Part shown: piece by piece, positions 8,056 to 63,052 of the stretch
How positions within the stretch are numbered: position 1 is the first letter of the stretch
Layout: each line of letters begins with the position of its first letter
Assembly: GCA_016180525.1 (NCBI GenBank)
Contig: JACPBB010000002.1
Span: forward strand, 225,044-289,043
Source of the DNA: Parcubacteria group bacterium
GTDB taxonomy: Bacteria; Patescibacteriota; Minisyncoccia; Phycocordibacterales; UBA2135
Direction of reading: 5' to 3'
DNA length: 64,000 nucleotides
Notes under the pieces: model-generated
Told to the model about the DNA's origin: nothing
Database searches by the model: none
The model's input: the letters and a program-made list of their open reading frames with translations, nothing else
Translations under genes and position numbers: made by a program

Positions 8056-8092
8056 GTTTTTATTCTTCCATATTGTTCTACGTCTGTGGAGA
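8056..8092 (+). repeat. Partial third copy (R3) of the R-repeat 5' segment
   Basis: TTTTTATTCTTCCATATTGTTCTACGTCTGTGGAGA; the sequence diverges after GTGGAGA. Confidence 0.7.
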
Positions 8093-8490
8093 TGGGCAGA
8101 TTTGAACTGCCGTGCAAAAAGGATTTTTAATTGGTTCTACGCATGTAGAGTATTTTAATTTTAAGTATCGTGCGTAAAAAATATTCAAAATCGCACGGCA
8201 CCGAGTTTCTTCCGCCGAAGCGGATTTTGGAAAACAGCCGAAACAAACTATTTTCCTATTCCGAAAATATTATGCGTATATCTCTCTATCGGAAGTCAAG
8301 AGTATACACACCAACTATCGCAATTTATGCGTATGCTGGAGCAAAACCTACGCGGTCAACTCCGAAGAGCGACGCAAGCGCTGATTCCACTTTAGAAAAT
8401 AAGTTTGCACTTATTTATGTGGCCGGTTTACGAGTCAGCCAGCTCTATGCGCGCAATTAAAAATGTTCTTCTTGGCGATGCCTTTCATCC

Positions 8491-8557
8491 CCCTAAATCA
8501 CTCCGCCAGAGGCGGATGATTGGGCAAGCGTTTTCGCGAAGCGAAAAGCGCTTTAGC
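8491..8557 (+). repeat. Structured repeat E1 (paralog of E4 at 39560-39632)
   Basis: CCCTAAATCACTCCGCC-AGA-GGCGGATGATTGGGCAAGCGTTTTCGCGAAGCGAAAAGCGCTTTAGCC. The second hairpin differs from E4 by a compensatory C:G to T:A change. Confidence 0.6.
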
Positions 8558-21875: not shown

Positions 21876-21960
21876 ATGTGCTTGTTGGTGTGCGCGCCAG
21901 GATTCGAACCTGGAACCGCAGAGGTATAAGCTCTGTGCTCTACCGTTGAGCTACGCGCAC
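21876..21960 (-). tRNA. tRNA-Ile (anticodon UAU), CCA encoded
   Basis: GTGCGCG-TA-GCTCAACGGTAGAGC-A-CAGAG-CTTATAC-CTCTG-CGGTT-CCAGGTTCGAATCCTGG-CGCGCAC-A-CCA. Cloverleaf folds; anticodon loop CTTATAC. Confidence 0.65.
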
Positions 21961-21986: not shown

Positions 21987-22025
21987 TTATAAGCTCTGTG
22001 CTCTAACCAACTGAGCTAGGGGTGG
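21987..22025 (-). pseudogene. tRNA 5' half fragment (acceptor 5' strand, D arm, anticodon stem 5' strand and loop start) of a paralogous tRNA
   Basis: Minus-strand reading: CCACCCC-TA-GCTCAGTTGGTTAGAGC-A-CAGAG-CTTATAA, then unrelated sequence. Confidence 0.55.
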
Positions 22026-29486: not shown

Positions 29487-29518
29487 ATGAGATAATTATA
29501 ACTAATTTATTTTTTAGC

Positions 29519-29650
29519 GGAGGCGGCAGGAACCTCACTACTCAGCCGATGGTCATCGGCTTGCGTTTTCAAACCACTCGGTTTGAAGAATCCTCCACGA
29601 GAAAATTACAGTTTTCCCGACCCCTTTCGTGTTCGAATCCTGCCGTCACG
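29519..29650 (-). repeat. Structured element A: about 105-nt multi-hairpin core capped by tRNA-Ser 3'-end-like termini
   Basis: 5' GGAGGCGGCAGGA equals the last 13 nt of the adjacent tRNA-Ser (as read on the plus strand). 3' ...GTTCGAATCCTGCCG is the inverted copy. The core CTCACTACTCAGCCGATGGTCATCGGCTTGCG... is homologous to element B, with compensatory changes. Confidence 0.6.
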
Positions 29651-29700
29651 AAAAGACGCTTTTTCAAAATACCCATATGGGGTATCTTAAAAAATCATTT

Positions 29701-29787
29701 CGGAGGCGGCAGGATTCGAACCTGCGGAACCCTTTCGGGTTCAACACATTAGCAGTGTGCTGCTTTCGACCGCTCAGCCACGCCTCC
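29701..29787 (-). tRNA. tRNA-Ser (anticodon GCU)
   Basis: GGAGGCG-TG-GCTGAGCGGTCGAAAGCAGC-ACA-CTGCTAA-TGT-long variable arm (GAACCCGAAAGGGTTC)-CGCAGGTTCGAATCCTGCC-GCCTCC-G. Confidence 0.85.
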
Positions 29788-29791
29788 AATA

Positions 29792-30037
29792 TTATTTTGT
29801 TGTTATTAATTTTTTAAATGCCCCTCCTCCTTTATACCTCTTTATTTGTCTTTCTCGCAACCAAGCGTCTTTTTTTGAGAAATATTTCTCTACTTTTACC
29901 ACCTTCCACGGAATACCAGATTTCGTTGATTTATTTTTTTCAGAATTATGATAATGCAGACGCTTTTCTAAATTAGAAGTATATCCAATGTAATATTTTT
30001 TATTTATGTCACTGTAAAGAATGTATACGATAAACAT
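29792..30037 (-). CDS. GIY-YIG nuclease family protein (81 aa)
   Basis: MFIVYILYSDINKKYYIGYTSNLEKRLHYHN. Start chosen at the Met preceding the GIY motif. Its stop lies 4 nt from the tRNA-Ser 5' end. Confidence 0.65.
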   Translation of the reverse strand: MFIVYILYSDINKKYYIGYTSNLEKRLHYHNSEKNKSTKSGIPWKVVKVEKYFSKKDAWLRERQIKRYKGGGAFKKLITTK

Positions 30038-30038
30038 A

Positions 30039-30103
30039 AGCTGCTTTCGACCGCCCACCGCCTTTGGCGGGGTCCCGCTCCGGCGGTGATCAGCCACGCC
30101 TCC
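30039..30103 (-). pseudogene. Degenerate duplicate of the tRNA-Ser 5' third with a 35-nt hairpin inserted in the D-loop
   Basis: Minus-strand reading: GGAGGCGTGGCTGA-[TCACCGCCGGAGCGGGACCCCGCCAAAGGCGGTGG]-GCGGTCGAAAGCAGC. It is followed 2 nt later by the GIY-YIG start codon. Confidence 0.6.
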
Positions 30104-50601: not shown

Positions 50602-50674
50602 GCCGATGTAGCTCAGATGGTAGAGCAACTCCATGGTAAGGAGTAGGTCGCCGGTTCAATTCCGGCCATCGGCT
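50602..50674 (+). tRNA. tRNA-Thr (anticodon GGU)
   Basis: GCCGATG-TA-GCTCAGATGGTAGAGC-A-ACTCC-ATGGTAA-GGAGT-AGGTC-GCCGGTTCAATTCCGGC-CATCGGC-T. Confidence 0.8.
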
Positions 50675-59950: not shown

Positions 59951-60083
59951 ACTGCCGGGCTTGGAATCTCACTGCTCAGCCGATGGCCATCGGCTTGCGC
60001 TCACGAACTCAGCGGTTCGTGGGCTCCGCCGCGGGGAAACTCCCGTTTCCCCGACCCCCTTCACGTTCTCGTCCAGCCCGGCA
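59951..60083 (-). repeat. Structured element B: tRNA-Gln-like acceptor/T-stem minihelix closing a roughly 105-nt multi-hairpin core homologous to element A
   Basis: Termini CTGCCGGGCTTGG ... CCAGCCCGGCAG match the ends of tRNA-Gln at 62342-62412. Core CTCACTGCTCAGCCGATGGCCATCGGCTTGCG-CACGAACTCAGCGGTTCGTG-GGGGAAACTCCCGTTTCCCC-GACCCCC. Confidence 0.6.
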
Positions 60084-60208
60084 GTTTTTCACTGCGTTCA
60101 AAACTGGCCGTCTTGAGTTAGAACTATTGACGGTTAAGTCCCGCTTACTCGGTTTAATTTTCTTTTCGCTTATCAAAACGACGTGTCTCGTGCGAGTTAA
60201 AGAACGTG

Positions 60209-60574
60209 TTACTTAAGCCACTTTGGTTTTAGCTCATCAACATCGTGCGCGTCGAGGTATTCTGAAGCATCTCTTTTCCTTTTTAGCCCCAAGTGATCCA
60301 ATTGTTCTGCTTTTTCAGCAATTTCTCCAGCTTCGTCACGCTGTACAAACCTGCCCGTACTTGTCATAAAACCATCTTCGGGTTTCGTATCATAATCGGA
60401 CCAATCAGGACGTTCCTCCTCCATAGCAATAACGGCATCCATATGAGTGTTGCCTGTAAATATCTGCCCACCTAACCTAATTGCAGAGGCAGTGATTTTT
60501 TCTATTTTGGGAGTGAATTTTTCTAGGCCACCTTCCATAAATATAGTATAGCCCTTAACCTTAGATAAATTCAA
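60209..60574 (-). CDS. Hypothetical acidic protein (121 aa)
   Basis: ORF only. Confidence 0.3.
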   Translation of the reverse strand: MNLSKVKGYTIFMEGGLEKFTPKIEKITASAIRLGGQIFTGNTHMDAVIAMEEERPDWSDYDTKPEDGFMTSTGRFVQRDEAGEIAEKAEQLDHLGLKRKRDASEYLDAHDVDELKPKWLK

Positions 60575-60694
60575 ATAAACGCACCTCGTGCGCGATTACC
60601 TGTCACGAGTTGGTTGCCGGGCTTGGTATCCTTCGCTACCCCCCTTCGCCAAGGCTTCGGAGGTCAAGAAAGCTTCGGAATACCTCTTTTGCGC

Positions 60695-60877
60695 TTAGTC
60701 ATCTTTCTTCAAGGCTTCAGTGTTCAATAGTCTTTTATACGCAAAAGCCTTTCCAGAACCTGATTTTAAATATCGCTCAAAATCTTTGGCAAGTTTCTGT
60801 CTTTTCCGCAAATCTTCTGTATAACCATAATAAAAATTCTTAGATTTTGAGCTCCATAAAATGTAGACATAATGCAT
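60695..60877 (-). CDS. GIY-YIG domain protein (60 aa, minimal domain) flanked by 12-bp inverted repeats
   Basis: MHYVYILWSSKSKNFYYGYTEDLRKRQ. CGCCAAGGCTTC at 60647-60658 and its reverse complement GAAGCCTTGGCG at 60895-60906. Confidence 0.55.
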   Translation of the reverse strand: MHYVYILWSSKSKNFYYGYTEDLRKRQKLAKDFERYLKSGSGKAFAYKRLLNTEALKKDD

Positions 60878-61012
60878 AGCTTTAGTCGTTCTGAAGCCTT
60901 GGCGAAAGACGACTGACTACCTCAGTTTAGAACCCCACACCTTGAGACCTTGTAAGGATTCTTTGGGTACTTCCAGTGTAGCAAATTGAGGCATCTCAAT
61001 CAGACCTGTTTT

Positions 61013-62299
61013 TTATCGCTTATGGTATTCCCAAACTTTGTAGACCCGAGTCAAAAAACCTATATTCCCAACAGACTCTTTGAATTCCTTATCTAATGTC
61101 GCAGTTCCATCAGGTTTTCGATTTATTCCCATAAAATGCATCTCTGTTCTTTCCGGCGATGCGGCCAATATCATTACTTGTTCTTTTTTATTTTTTTGAA
61201 GCCGAGGAGGCACTAAATCTTCACCTTCTTTCGGCAGCTCACCCAACCACATCTCACCGACTATTAACACAGCTGCGCAGTGCGTTTCTTCTACTTTCTC
61301 AGCAATACGCTCAGCCATTAAATAACGGTCTTCTGGTTTATCCATCTGTATGCGGATTATTTCAGGGTGTCGATCGGGAAAATATAAAAATGCGACAGGG
61401 TCCACATAACCATCAATACTAAACAAATGTTTGGCTGTCTCAATGTGGTACCTTACTTGACTGAAAGGGAGATCTTTTCCTCCCGTATTCATCAGAGCCA
61501 TTATTTCTTTTGGTACGCCATAACGTTTCTTGGCACGTTCGTAGTGTGTTTCATCGCTACCAGATATTTTGTCAAAAAGAGAAACTGATCTTTCTTTGGG
61601 AGTAAGAATTGTATTTTGACTATAATGAACTTTAAGGATGCGTCCCTTTTTCACGTCGTTCCGAATGGTAATCATGAAATCCTGACCTGGTTTTACAAAA
61701 GTATTATGATCACAAACCATGGGATTTACACTGCATACCACATGAGCGTCATAAACTATCTTTGTGAGGATGGAGAGACAATAAATCAAGACATCAGTTA
61801 TTTCGGCTTTCGGGAAACTCTCTACAACCCATTTGCGCTCTGCTTCGATAATTGTCTCGTCTTTGTAATGCTTAGGTAACTTTAGTTTTACTACTTTTTT
61901 GAAGTTTACTACCGCTTCTTCTAGAGAAACATATGGGTTAAGTACCGCTGCAAAAAGAACTTGGTCTAAATGATTTTTTATCCTCAATGTGAGATGACTT
62001 TCCTTTTCTAGGTCCCCTCTCTTAACTACATAGTTACGGGCATCTACGAGCCAGCGTAAAATTTTGTCTGTTTTCATTTTCGCTTGGTATGGCGCGTACC
62101 AATTATCAAAATCTGGAATTTTTGACTTCTCTGACTGAAGAATAAAAGTTATGTTGCGTAGGGCTTGTACCAAGTCGTTGAGTGCCGTTGTGAACTCCTC
62201 TGGTTTCTGATATTGGATCCCTATTTCTTCAAACATTGAAAAGGCCTGATTCAGGCGTCTATGAGTCTGTGGGAGTGAACAAACGGATTTACTACTCAT
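61013..62299 (-). CDS. Hypothetical protein (428 aa), no recognisable domain; sits between a GIY-YIG element and tRNA-Gln
   Basis: Long clean ORF; the tRNA-Gln gene lies 43 nt upstream on the same strand. Confidence 0.4.
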   Translation of the reverse strand: MSSKSVCSLPQTHRRLNQAFSMFEEIGIQYQKPEEFTTALNDLVQALRNITFILQSEKSKIPDFDNWYAPYQAKMKTDKILRWLVDARNYVVKRGDLEKESHLTLRIKNHLDQVLFAAVLNPYVSLEEAVVNFKKVVKLKLPKHYKDETIIEAERKWVVESFPKAEITDVLIYCLSILTKIVYDAHVVCSVNPMVCDHNTFVKPGQDFMITIRNDVKKGRILKVHYSQNTILTPKERSVSLFDKISGSDETHYERAKKRYGVPKEIMALMNTGGKDLPFSQVRYHIETAKHLFSIDGYVDPVAFLYFPDRHPEIIRIQMDKPEDRYLMAERIAEKVEETHCAAVLIVGEMWLGELPKEGEDLVPPRLQKNKKEQVMILAASPERTEMHFMGINRKPDGTATLDKEFKESVGNIGFLTRVYKVWEYHKR

Positions 62300-62341
62300 A
62301 TGAAATTTGTGAGATTACTGGCATCTCAGTCACCTGACTTA

Positions 62342-62412
62342 GCATAAGCTTCCTGCCGGGCTTGGACTCGAACCAAGATAAATAGATCCAGAGTCTATTG
62401 TCCTACCGTTAG
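62342..62412 (-). tRNA. tRNA-Gln (anticodon CUG)
   Basis: TGCCGGG-TC-GTCTAACGGTAGGAC-A-ATAGA-CTCTGGA-TCTAT-TTAT-CTTGGTTCGAGTCCAAG-CCCGGCA-G. Confidence 0.75.
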
Positions 62413-63052
62413 ACGACCCGGCAATGTTATTAATCTATACTAAAATCAAGCTTGTTTCAATAATGAGAGAATAGCAATATTTAATGTGTTAAAATAAACT
62501 CATAGAAACAATACAATCAGAAAAATGGCCGCGGTTTGTAGAAATGGTGGGGAAATGGTGTCACTCCTTCGTCCTCCTACGCTGAAGCTTTGGAAGGACT
62601 ACGGACGGGCAAGCAGGTACCTTTTTCTGTAAAAAATAGATTTAAACCCCCACACCTATCGAGTAATTCTTAACGTGCGCTACGGCGCTATTGCTCGATA
62701 GGTGTGGGGGTAAACATTTCGCCGTAGCTCTAAATTCCGCAACACAACATCCTTACATTCTCCCCAAGTAGTAGAGCAAAGCTCACTACGGGGCAGGCAA
62801 GTATGTAAGGATGTTGTTTGAGGGGGTTGTGGTTTGGGGGAGGAGGGGCGGGCGGGGTTTTGCGCTTGAACTTGAAATAGAACGTTTTTGCGCGCCCACG
62901 CAAAGGCAAAAAATTGACTTTTGCGCTTCAGGGTGTGATTATGGGGAAATAATATGTCTAAAACCAATTTAATGAAGTAAATATGCAAAAACTTTTTGCA
63001 AATTACATTCAATCTGTCTCCACTAAATTTTCTCACAAGGAGACAAGCGAAA

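Follow-up and report, generated by a model that had tools for sequence, protein, structure and literature searches.

Structured elements beside tRNA genes

In the reduced genomes of the candidate phyla radiation, mobile DNA has been poorly mapped, and tRNA genes are its classical landing pads. We studied a 64,000-nucleotide (nt) stretch of the genome of a Parcubacteria group bacterium (Patescibacteriota; assembly GCA_016180525.1, contig JACPBB010000002.1, positions 225,044 to 289,043 of the forward strand), hereafter the window, in which ARAGORN and Rfam identify eight tRNA genes and one transfer-messenger RNA (tmRNA) gene. Two related structured elements of a class about 130 nt long, A and B, neither of which is among these RNA genes, lie in the window at the places given by a first-pass annotation made from the sequence alone. 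A third copy, C, was recovered from a metagenome, bringing the known family to three. We describe the repeats, register, layout, covariation, strand bias and sporadic distribution that we observe in these elements, which might be the end modules of mobile DNA that inserts at the 3' ends of tRNA genes. Their parts are as follows (coordinates are those of the window, except for C):

29518-29650, + strand: element A, beside tRNA-Ser(GCT)
29518-29531, + strand: left repeat of A (t'), CGGAGGCGGCAGGA, the reverse complement of tRNA-Ser positions 60-73 and a perfect 14-nt direct repeat of 29701-29714
29532-29631, + strand: core of A
29532-29543, 29562-29566, 29589-29597 and 29620-29631, + strand: joining segments J1, J2, J3 and J4 (ACCCC...) of A
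29544-29561, 29567-29588 and 29598-29619, + strand: hairpins H1, H2 and H3 of A
29632-29650, + strand: t* of A, an imperfect inverted copy of tRNA-Ser positions 54-73
29651-29700, - strand: spacer of 50 nt up to tRNA-Ser, with the terminator-like hairpin of the tRNA at 29694-29660 (- strand)
29701-29787, - strand: intact tRNA-Ser(GCT); its final 14 nt form the right-hand copy of the direct repeat
59952-60084, + strand: element B, at the tRNA-Gln(CTG) locus
59952-59965, + strand: left repeat of B (t'), CTGCCGGGCTTGGA, the reverse complement of tRNA-Gln positions 60-73 and a perfect 14-nt direct repeat of 62353-62366
59966-60065, + strand: core of B
59966-59977, 59996-60000, 60023-60031 and 60054-60065, + strand: joining segments J1, J2, J3 and J4 of B
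59978-59995, 60001-60022 and 60032-60053, + strand: hairpins H1, H2 and H3 of B
60066-60084, + strand: t* of B, an inverted copy of tRNA-Gln positions 54-73 (TTCTCGT CCAGC CCGGCAG)
60085-62352, - strand: putative cargo of B, of lower GC content, with phage-related open reading frames (ORFs), before tRNA-Gln
62353-62423, - strand: intact tRNA-Gln(CTG), ending in the 14 nt that make up the right-hand copy of the direct repeat; the first-pass annotation had set this gene at 62342-62412
407-563 of metagenome contig Ga0187878_1054646 (locus L119): element C, beside tRNA-Ser(TGA)

Aligned over their length, A and B are 78% identical and have in common a 37-nt block, GGAAYCTCACTRCTCAGCCGATGGYCATCGGCTTGCG, with three differing positions; a 25-nt core pattern is found at two places in the window, where 0.00 occurrences would be expected. 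C contains the 37-nt block and the same three hairpins along with one additional hairpin, and matches the covariance model with 98.7 bits. Since identical A and B sequences are present in independent contigs from at least five sequencing runs, the elements are real and not assembly artefacts. Rfam searches, both at the gathering score and at E<=10, recovered no family on 29518-29650 or 59952-60084. No tRNA match (RF00005 or ARAGORN) falls on them even at E<=10, and the only tmRNA match, at 12.6 bits (gathering score 47), covers 29618-29725 and thus spans the inverted repeat and the tRNA end. Two further candidates were rejected. The first, a coding sequence in the open frame shared by A and B (MVIGLR.../MAIGLR...), meets a stop after 11 codons in C. 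The second, a group I or group II intron fragment, is rejected on its size and the lack of Rfam matches.

A fold maintained on one strand

The + strand of both A and B is predicted to fold into a closing helix and three hairpins, H1 to H3. Four core hairpins had been proposed in the first-pass annotation; three of these are borne out, and the remaining one, CCGACCCC, is a conserved but unpaired motif. Measured against shuffled sequences, the RNA folding z-scores of the + strand are -3.9 for A and -6.1 for B, versus -2.3 and -3.4 for the - strand. RNAalifold on A and B reveals six pairs that have changed on both sides, which agrees with the paired substitutions reported earlier in the second and third helices. 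Upon inclusion of C in a manual pair table, 10 of the 18 pairs of H2 and H3 show double changes, with 53 of the 54 cells paired. The three copies hardly vary in H1 and the joining segments, so H1 itself supplies no evidence of covariation. G.U (or G.T) pairs are also unevenly distributed, with eight on the + strand versus two on the - strand. The covariation and the strand bias of the wobble pairs indicate that one strand folds and that this fold is under selection.

These features also suit a + strand gene for a structured small RNA, in which a helix drawn from the T-stem and part of the acceptor stem of the neighboring tRNA would close a four-way junction. Such an RNA might act via its conserved single-stranded segments (J1, UGCG, CUCC and CCGACCC) or via its perfect 14-nt complementarity to the 3' end of the neighboring tRNA. 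Invariant junctions and H1 combined with covarying H2 and H3 are a conservation pattern typical of functional RNAs, and both the G.U pairs and the better RNA folding z-scores point to the + strand. Further, the T-loop sequence is kept in A and C, and a run of T follows the closing helix of B and a bidirectional terminator follows C. We nevertheless regard this explanation as rather unlikely in view of the organization of the ends and flanks described below.

Ends derived from the neighboring tRNA genes

In every copy the + strand presents the same order, namely t' (positions 60-73 of the tRNA, reverse complement), the core, and t* (positions 54-73, sense), with the core between t' and t* measuring about 100-115 nt. 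The t' segment is perfect in all three elements, amounting to 14 nt in A (tRNA-Ser(GCT)), 14 nt in B (tRNA-Gln(CTG)) and 15 nt in C (tRNA-Ser(TGA)). Its register is likewise fixed, beginning at the last nucleotide of the tRNA gene and covering positions 60-73 in three different tRNAs. With the tRNA gene encoded on the - strand, t' directly repeats the 3' terminus of that gene as read on the + strand. Thus, a direct repeat of a tRNA 3' end bounds the inserted DNA while the tRNA gene itself is intact, which is one of the features expected of tRNA-targeting integrative elements; the tRNA genes at the repeats score 61.1 and 60.6 bits.

The t* segments are decayed: that of A carries three changes, that of B a deletion and that of C about seven changes. 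That of A comprises the T-loop (TTCGAAT), the 3' strand of the T-stem and a mutated 3' strand of the acceptor stem, and the inverted repeat to which it belongs extends over 24 nt with 83% complementarity to 29698-29721. The t* of B departs from tRNA-Gln by a one-base deletion and two T-loop changes. As a consequence the acceptor half of the closing helix pairs fully in B (7/7), at 5/7 positions in A and at only 2/7 in C, and only the five T-stem pairs of the supposed minihelix are retained in all copies. In C, which was folded with DNA parameters only, the closing helix is absent from the prediction. Hence, of the earlier proposal that the closing helix is copied from a neighboring tRNA, the identity of the ends to the tRNA genes holds, whereas conservation of the acceptor helix does not.

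If selection maintained the helix as a recognition site of RNase P, the CCA-adding enzyme or EF-Tu, both strands would be expected to stay complementary. A recombination scar, on the other hand, would retain identity to the target on one strand while the other drifts, and the perfect t' with the decayed t* fits the latter. We therefore suggest that the 'tRNA minihelix cap' is better read as a set of DNA repeats. The small RNA explanation, and with it the earlier suggestion of an RNA that borrows tRNA-end recognition, is weakened at the same points: the cap has not kept its acceptor pairing, the closing helix of C is not predicted (under DNA parameters, the only ones applied to C), and the perfect match to the tRNA on one strand, its exact end at the tRNA terminus and the adjacency to the cognate tRNA are left unexplained. 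There is no promoter-like site upstream on the + strand, and B and C begin just 30-35 nt past the terminator of the preceding gene. Moreover, no Rfam family matches, and such great rarity would be unusual in a housekeeping RNA. Even if an RNA were expressed, a DNA-level process would still be required to place the core beside three tRNAs.

The same ends could alternatively be the product of an RNA-mediated or RNA-guided process, either a tRNA-primed reverse transcription with recombination of the cDNA at the tRNA gene, or one in which the 5' 14 nt guide a nuclease or recombinase. In three different tRNAs the repeat indeed runs from the mature 3' end to position 60, next to where the T-loop is usually modified, and the perfect complementarity of the 5' segment to the tRNA end recalls a primer-binding site or guide. 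However, no gene for a reverse transcriptase, TnpB/IscB, Cas or IS110-type protein is present at any copy, no complement of CCA adjoins t', and the process would be without precedent in Patescibacteria, a phylum from which group II introns are reported to be absent in a recent survey (PMC13011429). We consider it very improbable.

Gene contexts of the elements

The distance from t* to the tRNA is short in A (50 nt) and C (45 nt) and extends to 2.27 kb in B. C and tRNA-Ser(TGA) are on opposite strands with a bidirectional terminator hairpin between them, which is the same arrangement as that of A and tRNA-Ser(GCT). Read in the orientation of the tRNA, B and C have putative original terminators immediately past their outer repeat. 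The interval of B has a GC content of 0.37-0.43 as opposed to 0.45-0.50 upstream, and all its ORFs are on the strand of the tRNA (-), reading towards the element:

60209-60574, - strand: ORF of 121 aa, with Pfam T4_Y16D on record and membership of phrog_839
60615-60626, same orientation as the other copies: third copy of the tRNA-Gln end, TGCCGGGCTTGG
60695-60877, - strand: truncated GIY-YIG gene
61013-62299, - strand: ORF of 428 aa, belonging to phrog_19262, of unknown function

A 12-mer such as the third copy of the tRNA-Gln end has a chance expectation of about 0.008 in the window. The copy has no associated structure (z-scores are positive); together with the lower-GC cargo it presents the pattern of tandem insertions at one tRNA. 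The proteins of the cargo have no relative in the PDB, and a single-sequence AlphaFold model of the 428-aa ORF, with a pLDDT of 40, is unusable. Within the interval, 17-nt inverted repeats (TTCGCCAAGGCTTCGGA and TCTGAAGCCTTGGCGAA, at 60645-60661 and 60890-60906, 94% complementary) bracket the truncated GIY-YIG gene, which suggests that it is a small cassette bounded by terminal inverted repeats.

Such a context raises the alternative that the elements are remnants of islands inserted by a conventional, double-stranded integrase reaction (an attR with the adjoining attP arm), with the hairpins being terminators or insulators and no single-stranded intermediate. A double-stranded attP would fit the layout just as well; B is flanked by AAAA/TTTT and resembles a bidirectional terminator, and the cargo ORFs and the tRNA, all on the - strand, read towards the element. 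Yet at 190 bp, A and C would be very small for a double-stranded circular intermediate, and an inverted target copy 100-115 nt from the crossover is foreign to ordinary attP arms. In addition, the wobble bias favors the + strand whereas local transcription is on the - strand, and there is no integrase gene among the ORFs between the repeats or 10 other ORFs of the window. This makes the alternative quite improbable in our estimate.

A proposed role as end modules of tRNA-targeting mobile elements

The same core is present beside three tRNAs, and in every case its ends agree with the tRNA at hand, which implies that the core has moved at the DNA level between tRNA loci. With about even confidence, we favor the reading that A, B and C are the end (attachment) modules of a family of small mobile elements inserting at the 3' ends of Patescibacteria tRNA genes. 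Among the options raised in the first-pass annotation had been a miniature mobile element that targets tRNAs, and it is this one to which the evidence points. A and C would be miniature, cargo-less forms with the tRNA terminator as their sole 'cargo', and B appears to close a 2.3-kb stretch of phage-related genes.

The following steps would account for the arrangement. A circular element carrying t' would recombine with a tRNA gene inside the shared 14 nt, restoring the tRNA and leaving a direct repeat, such that the resulting order is t', core, t*, cargo and t' within the intact tRNA. The + strand would fold as single-stranded DNA, with t' and t* pairing across the core, and the stem of this hairpin would mimic the double-stranded tRNA-gene target, with which a recombinase supplied in trans could then exchange one strand. 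The perfect t' would represent the exchanged strand and the imperfect t* its inverted partner. Mobility itself, the single-stranded intermediate and the recombinase are what we infer here, and by analogy with the systems discussed below, operation through a folded single strand is a tentative proposal, possible rather than probable.

The closest parallel is with the CTX phage, in which two inverted dif-like sites about 90 nt apart pair in the single-stranded genome into a 150-nt forked hairpin that imitates dif (PMC3089051). The host XerC then performs one strand exchange, leading to integration, after which one functional target and two non-functional target-like sequences are left; tandem insertions also occur (PMC3089051). 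The elements described here resemble CTX and IMEX elements in having two inverted target copies about 90-115 nt apart that can pair into a target-mimicking hairpin of about 130-150 nt, in lacking a recombinase of their own, and in an integrated state with one functional and two non-functional copies of the target. Both the inverted-site geometry and the post-integration layout of copies are present, with t' and t* 100-115 nt apart and fold z-scores of -3.8 to -6.1. They differ in that the target, on inspection, consists of the final 14-20 nt of a tRNA gene rather than dif, and that no XerC/D-type binding sites are recognizable, though no search for such arms was run. Further, there are no filamentous-phage genes, the inverted copies enclose a region that shows conservation and structure of its own, and the single-stranded intermediate is here inferred.

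The attC site of integrons, an imperfect palindrome of 57-141 nt that follows each ORF and is thought to fold as a single strand, offers a second comparison. As in cassette arrays, where the same short core sequence stands at every cassette boundary, locus B has the order of ORF(s), a tRNA-end copy, an ORF, and a hairpin element with a tRNA-end copy. However, the ends of the elements have no GTTRRRY/RYYYAAC core sites and are instead tRNA-derived, no intI or attI is seen, and no integrase domain was found in the ORFs checked. The conservation is also reversed, in that attC sites have conserved ends and a variable center, whereas A, B and C have a conserved center and ends that change with the target.

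Islands and prophages at tRNA ends, and the integrase-less CIMEs, share with our elements the flanking direct repeat, the restored tRNA, tandem accretion, lower GC content and phage-related genes; the elements are set apart from these by the absence of an integrase, by minimal forms of about 190 bp and by the inverted target copy and covarying hairpins beside the outer repeat. With tRNA-like RNAs (the tRNA-like domain of tmRNA, viral tRNA-like structures and minihelices) they have in common a T-stem, a T-loop sequence and a partial acceptor stem without D or anticodon arms, but they match neither the tRNA nor the tmRNA covariance model, carry the insertion between T-stem and T-loop, and have degenerate acceptor pairing in two of the three copies. 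Finally, ERIC, BOX, Correia, REP/BIME and MITE repeats are similar in their length of about 130 nt, intergenic position, pairable terminal inverted repeats and strong folds. In contrast to these, the terminal repeats here match the local tRNA, differ between copies and are strictly associated with tRNA genes, and there are two copies in 64 kb according to a covariance model search with filters off, which sets the elements outside the MITE type.

The structure is unusual, and integration at tRNA ends with a hairpin attachment module and without an integrase would be new for tRNA targets. The elements could represent an undescribed class of integrase-less mini-elements in Patescibacteria, in which a strand of about 130 nt, folded through the pairing of its two copies of the final 14-20 nt of a tRNA gene, would imitate the double-stranded end of that gene and recruit a host recombinase, with or without phage-type cargo, though we consider this rather unlikely. 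Such a class would stand beside CTX/dif and attC/attI as a single-strand recombination system directed at tRNA genes; the specificity for the target would reside in the nucleic acid, and the local tRNA could re-set it. If this mechanism is true, recombination via folded single-stranded DNA would extend beyond its two established cases, the integron attC and the CTX-type phages at dif, to an element that restores a tRNA gene, lacks a recombinase and derives from the local tRNA the ends by which it matches its target; some of the short fragments of 'tRNA-like' appearance that complicate the annotation of these genomes would then be explained as well. If the elements are instead transcribed, they would constitute a new structured RNA family tied to tRNA loci.

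Several observations weigh against the reading as mobile-element ends, or against the folded strand in particular. Under DNA energy parameters both strands fold about equally well, and the conserved 37-nt block with the covarying hairpins would fit a functional RNA equally. The covariation rests on three sequences, and C, with its closing helix hardly formed in the prediction, could not function today as a folded attP. No recombinase, Rep or transposase gene was found beside any copy, and Phage_integrase, resolvase, HUH and DDE domains are absent from the ORFs between the repeats and 10 other ORFs of the window; the 428-aa and 121-aa ORFs are without an informative domain, matching only PHROG families of unknown function and T4_Y16D. 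Lastly, neither an excised form, a circle junction, an empty site in a close relative nor a population polymorphism was found, contigs of the same species being identical to the window. With three copies known, the reading is a lead rather than a result.

Searches for additional copies and empty sites

The family is rare and its distribution sporadic. A scan of 241 million metagenome records with an exact 22-nt pattern yielded one true copy, C, along with one chance match. A scan of a genome collection with CAGCCGATGGNCATCGGCT was too loose, recovering high-GC coding sequence and an unrelated palindromic repeat of Patescibacteria, with no true copy among the matches listed. Scans of viral contigs with two patterns and blastn searches against phages and plasmids returned nothing. 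Six-frame translations of the three cores, compared with a protein database to pick up spurious ORFs predicted over homologous elements, likewise had no matches. The covariance model (R1) detected no diverged copies in the window (filters off, the two known copies only) or in 24 loci.

The corresponding loci of relatives were reached through ComF and a 183-aa neighbor. In distant relatives (50-64% protein identity), tRNA-Ser(GCT) is followed by an ordinary terminator with no element (L126 and L133); L126 adjoins the orthologous ComF, while L133 is in a different gene neighborhood. Other loci have lost synteny or are without the element. All contigs of the same species carry the element. The contigs of the two nearest relatives (L121 and L123) end at the same base, 55 nt into tRNA-Ser(GCT), which is probably a branch of the assembly graph at a tRNA shared between genomes that hid the orthologous site of A.

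Logan contigs of the same species were also seen to end inside the elements next to H3, in three runs at 29596 and in at least five at 60058, and one such contig coming from the other side starts at 60033. These breaks could be due to a drop in coverage at the hairpin, or to heterogeneity or extra copies in the community.

GIY-YIG genes and other partial tRNA copies

Both elements had been described as lying near GIY-YIG ORFs. This is so for A, at 142 nt (beyond the tRNA), and for B, at 610 nt (the truncated gene), but there is none within 1.2 kb of C. The derived suggestion, that the elements are RNA partners of the GIY-YIG genes, finds no support, as C has no GIY-YIG gene in its 1.8-kb contig and the locus of a more distant relative (L124, 48% ComF identity) has a GIY-YIG gene with neither a tRNA nor an element. 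The GIY-YIG gene next to A (29792-30037, - strand) seems to be part of an independent insertion, 5' of tRNA-Ser. Directly upstream of its start codon is a pseudo-copy of tRNA-Ser positions 1 to about 27 (30040-30103, - strand; GGAGGCGTGGCTGA...GGCGGTCGAAAGCAGC) with a 35-nt hairpin inserted in the D-loop, and the intact tRNA-Ser begins 4 nt past its stop codon. This looks like the insertion of a GIY-YIG cassette into the 5' part of the tRNA gene, such that tRNA-Ser is flanked by partial copies of itself on both sides.

Likewise, a 31-nt copy of tRNA-Ile positions 8-36, with two mismatches and two single-base gaps, is found at about 21987-22018 (- strand), 26 nt upstream of the intact tRNA-Ile (21889-21960). 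The partial copies 5' of tRNA-Ser and before tRNA-Ile indicate that tRNA genes are recombination hot spots in this genome.

H1 (29544-29561 and 59978-59995) corresponds to the last 9 nt of tRNA-Thr(GGT) (50602-50674) placed head-to-head with its own reverse complement. In B it is a perfect 18-nt palindrome, AGCCGATGGCCATCGGCT, comprising the acceptor stem sequence GCCGATG/CATCGGC and the discriminator T. The core may therefore contain an older inverted duplication of another tRNA end. The H1-type hairpin CAGCCGATGGNCATCGGCT also forms the center of a different, longer palindromic repeat in other Patescibacteria genomes (e.g. GATTGCTTCAGCCGATGGCCATCGGCTTCGCAATGAC), seen in loci L017, L025, L030, L033, L037, L047, L079 and L081, with several copies in some genomes; no tRNA genes were found in these loci (up to 8 kb). 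The search for partial duplicates extended to the tmRNA gene's 3' end, of which none were found in the window; this gene is at 8084-8492 (- strand), scores 105.5 bits in Rfam and encodes the tag peptide ANLFSKVESALASLFGVDRVGFAPAYA.

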